A stretch of DNA of 64,000 nucleotides from Holophagae bacterium. Lineage in GTDB: Bacteria > Acidobacteriota > Holophagae > Acanthopleuribacterales > Acanthopleuribacteraceae. The stretch spans positions 158,848 to 222,847 of the forward strand of contig JAUIFE010000004.1 in assembly GCA_030429565.1 (NCBI GenBank), in the 5' to 3' direction. Below, one piece after another: positions 7,954-11,990 of this stretch; the first letter of the stretch is position 1; each line of letters begins with the position of its first letter. The notes under the pieces were generated by a model. It had not been told where the DNA came from. It worked only from the letters and a program-made list of their open reading frames with translations, and made no database searches. The position numbers and the translations under genes are program-made.

Positions 7954-10518
7954 ATGCCCGGTTTGTGGAAACGCCTCGAGGAAGCATTCGAGGCTTGCCA
8001 CGCGATGGAAGGCGCGGAACGTGCGGCATATTTGGCGCAGCTCGAACAATCGGATCCCGATTTGTATATCGAGTTGTGCAGTCTGCTTGAAAGCGACGAA
8101 CAAGCAGCCGCGGATTCCTTTTTCGAGGGGCCGGTGGTCAATCGCATCGACCCCGTCGACGACCCGCGAGCCATGATTGGTCAAGTTTTAGGGCCGTATC
8201 ATTTGCGGCGCGTGATTGGTGAAGGGGGTATGGGTTTCGTCTTTGAGGCAGAGCAGGTCGCGCCGATTCGCCAGCGGGTTGCGCTAAAGGTCATTCGCAG
8301 CAGTATCGCCGGGGAGCGGACCCGCAAACGCTTTGATTTAGAAATACAGACATTGGCGCGGCTAAACCACGAACACATTGCCCAAGTCTTTTTATCGGGA
8401 ATGACTGACAACGGTTTGGCCTATTTCGCGATGGAATTCGTGGAAGGCGTGCCTTTGGGCGATTACTGTCTGGAAAACCGCATTCCCATCGAAGAGCGCC
8501 TGCGGCTGTTTGCGCAAATCTGCCGGGCGGTTCACTACGCCCACCAACGTGGCATTATCCATCGCGATTTAAAACCGGCCAACATCCTCATTAAAAAAGT
8601 CGACGGGTTGATTGAGCCCAAGATCATCGACTTCGGCATCGCCAAGGCGGTGCAACCGGAGGAGGGCGGCGATCTCAGCTTCTTGATTGTGTCGCAACAG
8701 TTAACACTGCCAGGCATGGCCGTTGGAACGCTGTCCTACATGAGCCCAGAACAGACCCTGATCGACCAGGAAGGCATCGACCTACGCACCGATGTTTATT
8801 CGCTGGGTGTTTTGTTATACGAAATGTTGGTGGGCGTGCTGCCGCTTGACGAAACGCAATTACATGGCGACGCATGGGACCATGCCTTTAAAGCGATTCG
8901 CGAGACGAAACCAAAAATGCCGAGTCGGGCGGTCTTGCGCTCGGGTAGCGCGGTCGCCGAAACGCTGGCCGTGTCACGCGAGGTGCTGGCCAAGCGCTAT
9001 CGCGGTGAATTGGATTGGATCGTCATGAAGGCGCTGGAAAAAGAAGCAGGGCGCCGCTACGGATCGGCAAAGGCGCTGGCCGACGATCTTGAGCGTTACT
9101 TGCAAAAACGGCCGGTTGCAGCGGGACCCCCAAGTCTGTTTTACCAACTCAAACGCTTTATTCAACGCAACTTATTGCTTTCGATTGGGGTTGCCATCCT
9201 CGTGCTCGGTATTTGTGCCGGCGTCTTTGGTTTGGTTTCCGGTTTGGTGCGAGCCCAGCGAGCGGAGATACGTATTCGCGAAGAGGCGGAAACCGCTCAA
9301 AAGACGATTGAATTGCTCGAGGAGTTCGTGGTCTCGGCCTCGCCGGTAAACTTCGGTCGCGATGTGAAGGTCCTCGATCAACTGCAGGCGTTTGGACCGC
9401 GCATTGAGGCGGCCGAGTGGCGTCCGGAGGTGCGCGCCTCACTCAACCATATTATTAGCAAGGCCTTCCGAGCTGTGGGTGCCCATGATGAGGCGTTGGT
9501 GCACATGGAGCGGGCGGCGTCGCTACGACGGCGTTTGTTGGGTCTGGGCCATGAGGAAACCCTGTTGAGCCAAGCGGAATTGGCTTTTCTAAAAAGTGAG
9601 CTGGAGCAGGCGCCGCAACAGATCCGTCGCTTTCGATTGCTTACTCAGGACTTGTTGCGCTATGTCAAAGGCGATCATGCCTTGGTGATCGAAAGTCGGC
9701 TTTACTTGTTGCGGGCCTATGTTGCCGTCGGCGACCAGCGCCATGCCGACCTGGTTGCCGCGCAGATTGCGGCCCGGTTGGGTCCAGACGGGCCGACTTA
9801 CAAGGAAGGCCTGTATTTCGCTTTGAGTTTGGCCCATGAACAAGCGTTAGGAGCCTTTGGCCAGGGGCGCTATCAGGATTGTCTGCGCCGGCTTGAGGCG
9901 GTGGCGCCGGCCGATGAGGCCGAACCTGCCGCCCGCGCCCGTTTTCAATGGCTGCAAAATCGGGTTTTGGCGGCGCGTGCGCGATTTTACCTTGGTGAGC
10001 AAGAGCTTGCCCGGCGACAGTTGGCTGCAGCAATCGACCAAGCGGAACGTTGGTACGGTGAGGAGCACACTTATCCGGCCCAACTCAAGGTGACGCGCTT
10101 CGAGTTGGAGAACCTGAACCGGGCGCAGCGCTTGGATTTGGTGAGCCAAGTGATGGCGCCGCTGTTGGAATTTTTTCCAGCACCGTCACCGTTGTTTGAT
10201 CCTGTCTTGGAAGGTTTGTGTCAACAACCCTTTAACGAAGATTCCCAAATGGTTGCGGCAGCGGTCATGGAGGCTTTTTTCAGACGTTATCATCGCAAAA
10301 TTAGCCAACCCGGCTTGTTCATTGATTGGTTGGCCTGCTACGCTATGGTAGAGAACCAACGTGATCCAATCGCGGGTGAAGCGTTGGCTGACTTGGTCGT
10401 CGACCATTTACCCGCTGCCAATGCGGCGCAACGCGCGCGAATCATGCCCCCCTCGCGGGTCTTGTCTCTGCGCGACCCCTGGCGTTGCTTGGCCGAAAGC
10501 GGCAGTGCCGAACGATAA
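7954..10518 (+). CDS. Hanks-type Ser/Thr protein kinase with N-terminal ECF-associated motif, one TM helix and a large C-terminal helical-repeat domain
   Basis: GGAGTGA SD before ATG 7954; kinase subdomains GEGGMGFVFEA, VALKVI, HRDLKPANIL, DFGIAK, SPEQ; TM segment LLLSIGVAILVLGICAGVFGLV; the N-terminal 50 aa resemble the N-terminus of the ECF-linked kinase at 33665..34933. Confidence 0.85.
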   Translation: MPGLWKRLEEAFEACHAMEGAERAAYLAQLEQSDPDLYIELCSLLESDEQAAADSFFEGPVVNRIDPVDDPRAMIGQVLGPYHLRRVIGEGGMGFVFEAEQVAPIRQRVALKVIRSSIAGERTRKRFDLEIQTLARLNHEHIAQVFLSGMTDNGLAYFAMEFVEGVPLGDYCLENRIPIEERLRLFAQICRAVHYAHQRGIIHRDLKPANILIKKVDGLIEPKIIDFGIAKAVQPEEGGDLSFLIVSQQLTLPGMAVGTLSYMSPEQTLIDQEGIDLRTDVYSLGVLLYEMLVGVLPLDETQLHGDAWDHAFKAIRETKPKMPSRAVLRSGSAVAETLAVSREVLAKRYRGELDWIVMKALEKEAGRRYGSAKALADDLERYLQKRPVAAGPPSLFYQLKRFIQRNLLLSIGVAILVLGICAGVFGLVSGLVRAQRAEIRIREEAETAQKTIELLEEFVVSASPVNFGRDVKVLDQLQAFGPRIEAAEWRPEVRASLNHIISKAFRAVGAHDEALVHMERAASLRRRLLGLGHEETLLSQAELAFLKSELEQAPQQIRRFRLLTQDLLRYVKGDHALVIESRLYLLRAYVAVGDQRHADLVAAQIAARLGPDGPTYKEGLYFALSLAHEQALGAFGQGRYQDCLRRLEAVAPADEAEPAARARFQWLQNRVLAARARFYLGEQELARRQLAAAIDQAERWYGEEHTYPAQLKVTRFELENLNRAQRLDLVSQVMAPLLEFFPAPSPLFDPVLEGLCQQPFNEDSQMVAAAVMEAFFRRYHRKISQPGLFIDWLACYAMVENQRDPIAGEALADLVVDHLPAANAAQRARIMPPSRVLSLRDPWRCLAESGSAER

Positions 10519-11990
10519 CGGAGGCTTGTGTTTTGGATTGCAAGGCGAAAAGCGCCGAAGGTGGCGATTGGGCGGCTTATTTTTCTTGGCTGGCCGAGCA
10601 AGGTTGTCGCTTTCCCTATATTCAGGTCGCGCTGCATGCCGACGGTGAACGGGCGTTGCGTGCCAAAAAAAGTTTTGACGGCAAAGACGAGATCGTTTTT
10701 GTACCGCGCAGCTTGATGATTACCCCTGGATTGGTTCACCAGTCGCCGTTGGGGGCCTTGCTCAAAGAACACGATGTGCAGTTACACTCGTCGCAAACGT
10801 TGATTGCTTTGTTCATTTTGGAAGAGAAACGGCGTGGCAACAGTTATTGGCAATTTTTTCTCGATCACTTGCCCGAGACCTACGATCACATCCCCGCCTA
10901 TTTTAGCGACGAACGCCTTGACGAGCTCAAGGGGTCGTTTACCTACCGGCCGATTCTCTACCGGCGCCAATTGATTCAGCGCGAATATGAAACTGTGCGG
11001 GACAAACTGGGGGCGGTGCGCGATTGGTCTTTCGAAGAAGTGCGTTGGGCCTTAACCGTGGTCAACACGCGCTGTTTTTCGCTGCCCAACGAAGAAGGCA
11101 AAGACGAACCGGTGGTGGTGCCTTTGGCCGACATGATGAATCACGGCGAACCGGCCAATGCTAAGTGGCGTTGTGATGAGCCGGGCGGCGGTTTGGTGAT
11201 TCGCGCGCGTGGGCCCATTGCCGCCGGCCGCCAAATCACGATTAGCTACGGTCAAAAAACCAAGGGGCGCTTTTTCGCCAGTTACGGGTTCTTCGATTTG
11301 AACAATGATCGTTGGCAGGCGGTATTGCCGATTCACATCGACAAAGACGATCCCTATTTTGGCGAAAAGCAGACCTTTGTGCACCGCCAGCAAGGGCCGC
11401 GATTTGCGCTGCATTACCGCCGTTATGAAAAGCTGGCGCGTGCGTTGCGTGCCGTGCGCTGCCTGTTGACCGATTGGCACGTCGCCTGGGAACGGCGCAT
11501 GGTGCTGGCCGGCAAGGTGGTTTCGCAGGAAAACGAACGCATGACGATGATGTATTTGGTCGGCCTTTGTCGCGATGCACTCGAAGCATTTCCACAGACC
11601 TTGGAAGAGGATCGCGCTCTGTTGTTGGACGAAACGCGTATGAGTCGATTGTCGCTACCCGAGCAGTCGGTAGTGCAGTTGCGCTGCTCCGAAAAACAGG
11701 TTTTAACGCGGGTTGCGGCCTTTGCGGCGAGTGTTGCCGACCTTTTAGAGGCCGACACCCAAGAGGTGTTGGAGGTCCTGGTTAAACCGGAGGCGGTCGA
11801 GGCCTGGCCACCTGCTTTGCGGCGCTGGTTCCAGTCGTGGTCGGAAGAAATGGTGCCGGTCTTGTTCGCAGAGAGTGGTTCGCGTCGGTTGGAAGAACCC
11901 CTGACGCGGCCCATGATTGGTGATGATGGTGAGGACGGCGACGAAGAGGCGATGCTGTCAGAGGATGCACCAAAATCGTCGGAAAAATGA
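10485..11990 (+). CDS. SET-domain protein (Rubisco-LSMT/SETD3-like lysine/histidine methyltransferase family)
   Basis: motifs EIVFVPRSLMITP, VVPLADMMNHG, RQITISYGQ are typical of the SET fold; about 250-aa C-terminal tail; start ambiguous: ATG 10485 (34 nt inside the kinase 3' end) or TTG 10533, 9 nt after GGAGG 10520-10524. Confidence 0.65.
   Translation: MLGRKRQCRTITEACVLDCKAKSAEGGDWAAYFSWLAEQGCRFPYIQVALHADGERALRAKKSFDGKDEIVFVPRSLMITPGLVHQSPLGALLKEHDVQLHSSQTLIALFILEEKRRGNSYWQFFLDHLPETYDHIPAYFSDERLDELKGSFTYRPILYRRQLIQREYETVRDKLGAVRDWSFEEVRWALTVVNTRCFSLPNEEGKDEPVVVPLADMMNHGEPANAKWRCDEPGGGLVIRARGPIAAGRQITISYGQKTKGRFFASYGFFDLNNDRWQAVLPIHIDKDDPYFGEKQTFVHRQQGPRFALHYRRYEKLARALRAVRCLLTDWHVAWERRMVLAGKVVSQENERMTMMYLVGLCRDALEAFPQTLEEDRALLLDETRMSRLSLPEQSVVQLRCSEKQVLTRVAAFAASVADLLEADTQEVLEVLVKPEAVEAWPPALRRWFQSWSEEMVPVLFAESGSRRLEEPLTRPMIGDDGEDGDEEAMLSEDAPKSSEK

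Follow-up and report, generated by a model that had tools for sequence, protein, structure and literature searches.

This study concerns two adjoining genes in a 64,000-nt stretch of DNA from a Holophagae bacterium of the family Acanthopleuribacteraceae (Acidobacteriota; assembly GCA_030429565.1, contig JAUIFE010000004.1, positions 158,848 to 222,847 of the forward strand); we call this whole stretch the window, and positions are counted from its first letter. The upstream gene codes for a receptor-type Hanks Ser/Thr kinase and the downstream one for a SET-domain protein that adds a bacterial member to a known class of enzymes, that of pea Rubisco large subunit methyltransferase (LSMT) and human SETD6 and SETD3, in a lineage-specific and probably co-transcribed pair. 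Its pocket residues predict a lysine methyltransferase, not a histidine methyltransferase of the SETD3 type. An earlier note, written from the letters of this DNA, had seen in the two genes a phospho/methyl signalling pair, which is a reasonable hypothesis, not a finding. The two genes are as follows:

7954-10518, + strand: Hanks-type Ser/Thr protein kinase gene, 854 aa, one membrane helix; ATG start, TAA stop at 10516-10518
10533-11990, + strand: SET-domain protein methyltransferase gene, 485 aa, LSMT/SETD6/SETD3 class, TTG start; assigned by Pfam, PDB search and structural model

By every feature testable here, the 485-aa protein is of the LSMT/SETD3/SETD6 class, its catalysis being predicted from sequence and model. 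Both Pfam families expected of the class score above their curated cut-offs: SET (PF00856) with 30.0 bits against 22.4 (E = 7.2e-07) and Rubis-subs-bind (PF09273) with 48.4 bits against 21.6 (E = 1.9e-12, aa 272-391). A sequence search of the PDB returned SETD3 (5.9e-28, aa 17-400), pea Rubisco LSMT (1.5e-23) and SETD6 (1.3e-10); the family matches lie far beyond chance. AlphaFold, given 30 homologues, produced a confident model (predicted local distance difference test, pLDDT, 89.9; predicted template-modelling score 0.86), with disorder only at residues 1-4 and 453-485. In Foldseek it matched SETD3 (3.2e-23), LSMT (target-normalised template-modelling score 0.74-0.77, root-mean-square deviation 3.3-3.8 Å) and SETD6 (8.9e-18), each with a probability of 1.00 and across 420-440 columns; the two-lobe fold is thus superposable on all three. 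Pfam, PDB search and model therefore agree with the earlier note, which had recognised a SET fold followed by a tail of the Rubisco-LSMT/SETD3 type from three motifs, all of them present in the product: RSLMITP at 59-65, VVPLADMMNHG at 195-205 and ITISYGQ at 235-241 (numbered from TTG 10533). The protein is laid out in four parts:

10581-11327, + strand: catalytic lobe, a split SET domain with an insert, about aa 17-265; from the SETD3 alignment and conservation among the 30 homologues
11346-11705, + strand: helical substrate-binding lobe (Rubis-subs-bind), aa 272-391; PF09273, modelled at pLDDT > 90
11757-11876, + strand: extra C-terminal helices, aa 409-448 (model helices 409-417, 419-422 and 427-448); near-invariant in three orthologues
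11889-11987, + strand: disordered acidic tail, aa 453-485; pLDDT < 50

The catalytic lobe holds N203-H204 as its NH motif, Tyr239 as the catalytic residue, and Phe182, Ala199 and Ile237 in the pocket; among the 30 homologues the catalytic Tyr is found in all and the NH-motif His204 in 29. The tail opens with a motif conserved in the orthologue alignment, [ST]-R-P-M-[IL]-G-[DE]-D, which includes Thr458. A hydrophobicity scan of the protein found no membrane segment or signal peptide (maximum 1.11); lacking a hydrophobic segment, it is therefore most likely cytoplasmic.

The pocket that receives the target residue is what separates the lysine enzymes of this class from the histidine enzyme. Four residues line it in SETD3: Asn255, for which SETD6 and LSMT have Phe; Trp273, for which both have Ala; Ile310, which LSMT shares; and a conserved tyrosine, Tyr312, which has a catalytic role in enzymes of the SETD3 class; replacing Asn255 alone moves the activity of SETD3 from histidine towards lysine (Dai et al. 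2019, PMC6684798). Phe182, Ala199, Ile237 and Tyr239 of the window protein align with these four positions, in that order, and are identical to those of LSMT. The Asn and Trp of the histidine pocket are thus both missing, and the Phe, Ala and Tyr of the lysine pocket are all in place; across the 30 homologues Phe occurs in 27 and Ala in 20, and Tyr is invariant. The best PDB entry by sequence is 6V62, which is not the natural enzyme: it is a double mutant of SETD3 (N255F/W273A), solved in crystals together with a lysine-substituted actin peptide, and it scores highest because the window protein has Phe182 for Asn255 and Ala199 for Trp273. One could still imagine that the enzyme, like SETD3, methylates histidine, in a bacterial actin homologue or in some other protein, as SETD3 ranks first both by sequence and by fold; with Phe and Ala at the two decisive positions, which the lysine enzymes LSMT and SETD6 share, with the effect of the Asn255 substitution in SETD3 itself, and with the N255F/W273A mutant as the best-scoring PDB entry, this is hardly credible. 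The likeness to SETD3 drawn in the earlier note therefore holds for fold and family and does not extend to the pocket.

Set beside the solved enzymes, the window protein is closest in build to Rubisco LSMT (pea; PDB 1MLV, 1OZV, 1P0Y and 2H21), with which it shares the split SET lobe and the Rubis-subs-bind helical lobe, the best structural superposition and the pocket just described. The identity to this plant chloroplast enzyme is only about 22%, and unlike it the window protein has extra conserved C-terminal helices and an acidic tail, belongs to a bacterium and is encoded downstream of a kinase gene. LSMT acts on the Rubisco large subunit (or chloroplast aldolase), and the likeness drawn here is one of fold and pocket. 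Human SETD3, the actin histidine-73 N-methyltransferase, shares the domain order and differs at the Asn255 and Trp273 positions, where the window protein resembles the double mutant rather than the natural enzyme. Human SETD6, which methylates a lysine of the NF-kB subunit RelA, shares the fold class and the Phe and Ala pocket positions; it is the weaker match (its PDB alignment covers the SET lobe only), and at the Ile position of the window protein and LSMT it has Asn.

That SET enzymes methylate lysines in proteins is a textbook fact of eukaryotic biology, and the characterised bacterial SET enzymes known to us are mostly small histone-mimicking proteins or secreted effectors, such as NUE of Chlamydia and BtSET of Burkholderia. 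RomA/LegAS4 of Legionella is likewise a bacterial SET protein, but it combines SET with ankyrin domains and is delivered into host nuclei. We know of no LSMT-type helical lobe in any of the Legionella, Chlamydia and Burkholderia effectors. Unlike these secreted proteins, the window protein has an LSMT-like architecture, no predicted signal peptide and an ordinary chromosomal signalling neighbourhood. The earlier note had called SET proteins rare in bacteria, which overstates the matter: they have been described from free-living and environmental bacteria (PMC3980110), and the LSMT-like subtype itself is present in a dozen or more further lineages, chiefly Myxococcota and Acidobacteriota with large genomes together with a few other metagenome-assembled genomes.

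Could the methyltransferase nevertheless be a eukaryote-like effector, exported by an animal-associated bacterium to methylate a host protein? The family is overwhelmingly known from eukaryotes, its solved relatives being SETD3, SETD6, LSMT and the plastid protein PAP7, and Acanthopleuribacteraceae, with isolates from a chiton and from a coral, encode ankyrin proteins (PMC8841776). We consider it improbable all the same: the SET protein has no signal peptide or hydrophobic N-terminus (type III, IV and VI secretion signals being outside the reach of this analysis), the neighbours examined include no secretion-system genes, and co-expression with a membrane receptor kinase would better suit an internal role. 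Its closest relatives are moreover bacterial (Sulfidibacter, Archangium and Minicystis), many of them from soil bacteria with no animal host, and its base composition is native, the GC content of the kinase and SET genes, overall and at third codon positions (GC3), being equal to that of their neighbours. We find no compositional sign of a recent horizontal transfer of the pair, and the native composition, together with bacterial nearest relatives (judged from the order of best hits, not from a tree), argues against a recent import from a eukaryote.

The start of the SET gene decides how it is spaced from the kinase gene. In the open reading frame list as in the raw sequence, the frame ending at 11990 (+ strand) differs from that of the kinase. 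Between the kinase stop and TTG 10533 lie 14 nt, which hold a putative ribosome-binding site:

10520-10524, + strand: Shine-Dalgarno-like GGAGG, starting 2 nt past the kinase TAA and ending 8 nt ahead of TTG 10533

A purine-rich GGAGG-like motif followed by TTG stands at the matching position in Acanthopleuribacter pedis and in two further assemblies (L004 and L108), and the junction of these three relatives follows one pattern: stop codon, GGAGG-like motif, TTG-GAT-TGC/TCG-AAG-GCG-AAA. The start is most likely TTG 10533, as this arrangement of motif and TTG is conserved in four assemblies and the gene callers agree on the 485-aa product. The other start considered, at 10485 with a 34-nt overlap, had been read as ATG; the codon is in fact TTG and has no upstream ribosome-binding site, and the conserved motif favours 10533. 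TTG 10533 and the GGAGG in front of it had also been named in the earlier note, and both are real; the motif lies just past the stop and not, as was thought, within the last kinase codons, and the spacer of 14 nt corrects the statement that there is no intergenic space.

The tight same-strand packing that had been described is otherwise borne out. A scan of the junction found no terminator-like and no promoter-like site; the short spacer begins almost at once with the ribosome-binding site, and the gene order is kept in relatives. Judging from this packing and its conservation, the kinase and SET genes are probably on a single transcript, and ribosomes finishing the kinase gene may aid initiation at the weak TTG of the SET gene. 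A promoter for the unit presumably lies in the gap upstream of the kinase, which separates it from a divergent gene:

5053-7053, - strand: TonB-dependent receptor gene, from the open reading frame list
7054-7953, no strand: 900-nt gap without genes, flanked by the kinase gene and the divergent TonB-dependent receptor gene; from the open reading frame list

A sigma-70 consensus scan of 7054-7953 gave no promoter-like site, and an Rfam scan of 6900-13300, covering both this leader and the junction, matched no regulatory RNA. The gap is unusually long; its counterpart in A. pedis measures 525 nt.

The product of the first gene is, as had been noted, an 854-aa membrane kinase ending at 10518: reading frame, Pfam Pkinase match (145 bits, E = 2.9e-42) and a single helix all confirm it. 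The kinase motifs are complete (GEGGMGFV 89-96, VALK 109-112, HRDLKPAN 203-210, DFG 226-228 and SPE 264-266), and the A. pedis orthologue is 68-69% identical across the full length and shares the start. Its parts are the following:

8197-8919, + strand: catalytic kinase domain, aa 82-322; Pfam Pkinase match
9172-9249, + strand: sole predicted transmembrane helix, aa 407-432, LLLSIGVAILVLGICAGVFGLVSGLV; Kyte-Doolittle maximum 2.74 over 19 residues, with no second such segment
about 9250-10515, + strand: C-terminal domain, ~420 aa, predicted all-helical with weak TPR similarity; Pfam TPR below cut-off, low-confidence model

The catalytic domain must be cytoplasmic because it needs ATP, and the topology implies that the C-terminal domain should lie outside the cytoplasm, as the presumed sensor. 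For this last domain the TPR_12 and TPR_10 scores remain under the Pfam cut-offs, and a single-sequence model is all-helical at low confidence (pLDDT 50.8, too weak for a fold search); the domain is 55-61% identical in A. pedis and L004. A word-indexed protein search with 9244-10515, the region of this domain, returned no match, not even the query itself, which reflects a limit of the tool, since the A. pedis and L004 orthologues exist. Assignment of the kinase to the methylation-associated defence kinase MAD6 or to BREX PglW was rejected, as the NCBIfam scores are far under the cut-offs and reflect the shared kinase domain only.

The pairing is not unique to the window genome. The order kinase then SET, with a short spacer, is found in four assemblies of the Acanthopleuribacter clade, the SET proteins of which compare with that of the window (100%) as follows: about 90% identity in L108, 69% in A. 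pedis, the closest named relative, and 68% in contig L004. At 68-69% protein identity the junction spacing is kept at 11-14 nt, the conserved TTG of L004 lying 38 nt past the kinase stop. The A. pedis junction is intact although 6 kb have been inserted just downstream of SET and the genes upstream of the TonB receptor differ. The insertion (L001:11682-17731, between SET and EamA) holds a gene for a 1782-aa YD-shell/Tox-REase-7 polymorphic toxin and one for a 234-aa HEAT_2 protein; neither is present at this place in the window or in L108.

These observations permit a mechanism, which we state in the conditional. In a two-gene transcription unit of an Acanthopleuribacter-clade bacterium, the receptor-type kinase, with its catalytic domain in the cytoplasm, one helix and a putative TPR-like helical domain outside, would sense an external signal; it would then phosphorylate either the cytoplasmic SET methyltransferase, with its intact catalytic motifs, LSMT/SETD6 build and lysine-type pocket, or the protein that this enzyme modifies. 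The conserved Ser/Thr at 458, at the start of the disordered tail, is a candidate phosphosite on the methyltransferase. The outcome of the signal would be that an endogenous protein of the cytoplasm is methylated on lysine; proteins of the translation apparatus are our guess as substrates, from the targets of eukaryotic members of this enzyme class. Arguing from operon logic, we put a functional link of this kind, through phosphorylation of the enzyme or of its substrate, only just below an even chance.

Several observations weigh against such a link. The whole block of TonB receptor, kinase, SET, EamA and a second kinase is syntenic in the clade, and the flanking genes, 59-69% identical to those of A. 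pedis, are conserved about as much as the pair itself; conserved adjacency is thus weak proof of shared function. All four assemblies in which the pair occurs are from a single clade, and kinases are dense there, with three in the 64-kb window and three in 21 kb of A. pedis. Among the roughly 55 genes of the window this makes about one Hanks kinase per 18 genes, so that any given gene has a prior of about 5% of a kinase as its upstream neighbour, and the adjacency is less beyond chance than the family matches. At two Sulfidibacter loci no kinase was found within 8 kb of the SET gene, nor was an adjacent kinase seen at any of 80 metagenome loci (a survey scanned with a 5-sequence alignment) or a kinase fusion in any of 10 long homologues scanned; the pair also has no partner domain such as FHA. 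The conserved pairing is confined to one small clade.

The same facts favour two neighbours with no shared job, that is, two real enzymes, maybe co-transcribed, which act on unrelated targets and owe their adjacency to a kinase-rich genome and an inherited gene order. The density of kinases, the synteny of the block at similar identity for all its genes, and the absence of the pairing from Sulfidibacter and the metagenome loci all fit this account, as does the fact that the recurrent partner of the family is a GNAT acetyltransferase, not a kinase. What speaks against it is the junction, kept at 11-14 nt with its ribosome-binding site against the stop codon while the proteins have diverged to 68-69% identity, and retained in A. 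pedis where gene content has changed on both sides. Tightly packed and conserved gene pairs in bacteria are usually functionally related. We regard unrelated neighbours as quite possible, somewhat below an even chance.

Relatives beyond the clade show how far the kinase travels with the enzyme. They were sought in a library of 1.84 billion representatives, in which identity to the SET protein drops to about 30% after the clade, and 20 other loci were examined in species-representative genomes; a word-indexed protein search with a 30-sequence SET-family profile gave seven matches, none of them new. Minicystis rosea counts in favour of a link: on one strand it has a row of GNAT, SET and Pkinase genes (L021:7249-10882), with a 4-nt overlap of GNAT and SET, and thus a separate same-strand SET-kinase pair. 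At the Archangium loci the adjoining kinase is convergent, on the opposite strand, and the remainder of the 20 loci have no adjacent Hanks kinase. A Hanks kinase is therefore next door in about three of roughly 14 independent lineages, against about one expected by chance (a rough estimate), which is not clearly above chance; a general kinase-SET module across bacteria, with adjacency in unrelated lineages above chance, was not found.

The commoner partner of LSMT-like SET proteins is the GNAT acetyltransferase. It is fused at the C-terminus in P0008 of Sulfidibacter and in P0015, and at the N-terminus in a Planctomycetota metagenome-assembled genome (L016:7107-9236) and in P0130. The proteins of Sulfidibacter corallicola are the nearest relatives beyond the clade (E = 1e-48 to 1e-60, ~30% identity), and Sulfidibacter is placed in the same family, Acanthopleuribacteraceae (PMC8841776). 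Like the window protein, the Sulfidibacter SET-Rubis-subs-bind-GNAT fusions have the extra C-terminal helices, the alignments of P0007, P0008, P0010 and P0015 reaching aa 438-444 of the window protein; unlike it, they carry a C-terminal GNAT domain of their own. Because the fusion proteins align through aa 440-444, the window protein gives the impression of a relative without GNAT, its acidic tail standing where that domain would be. The recurrent SET-GNAT fusions may be a better lead to the role of the family than the pairing with a kinase.

In a Sulfuricellaceae metagenome-assembled genome (L023:7878-9809) SET is fused to a chloramphenicol-phosphotransferase-like P-loop kinase. Other architectures were seen among the LSMT-like SET proteins: SET with a PhyH dioxygenase domain (P0031), TPR with SET (P0011 and P0039), and two Rubis-subs-bind lobes (P0014, P0021, P0110 and P0083). 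Four relatives (L056, L062, L073 and L106) come from long metagenome contigs of up to 269 kb with a GC content of 21-31%, unlike the high-GC bacterial loci. In Archangium gephyra (L010:6909-7913) the gene immediately upstream of the SET homologue codes for a YhgA-like transposase (Transposase_31), a hint that the homologue may be mobile in this lineage.

No model for the LSMT-like bacterial subtype exists in the NCBI curated family library (NCBIfam), and our literature search found no paper on bacterial LSMT/SETD3-like enzymes, on myxobacterial SET proteins or on a kinase-SET operon; the Acanthopleuribacteraceae genome paper mentions neither kinases nor SET proteins nor methyltransferases. The enzyme at this locus is a complete one of the LSMT/SETD6 type: its lysine pocket is intact and its composition native, and its gene is packed behind that of a receptor kinase in a cultivable genus, A. 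pedis KCTC 12899 carrying the same pair. If the kinase controls the methyltransferase, this would be a simple and genetically tractable case of phospho-methyl crosstalk in a bacterium; if it does not, the enzyme would be one more uncharacterised member of a kinase-rich genome. A wider generalisation would be that signalling-rich, large-genome bacteria use endogenous lysine methylation of the LSMT/SETD6 type, tied to other modification enzymes, with a receptor-kinase switch in Acanthopleuribacter and a GNAT or a P-loop kinase in relatives. In so broad a form we think it unlikely; if true, prokaryotes too would have phospho/methyl/acetyl crosstalk on lysines, such as eukaryotes show in chromatin and in NF-kB signalling.

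The Acanthopleuribacter-clade and family assemblies compared here measure 10-12 Mb. Besides the kinase of the pair, the window contains two more Hanks kinases, one of them with a long TPR array, a PAS/receiver hybrid histidine kinase and a CheA:

13176-15641, + strand: Hanks kinase gene
33665-35002, - strand: Hanks kinase gene
18539-21172, - strand: PAS/receiver hybrid histidine kinase gene
44579-46822, - strand: CheA gene

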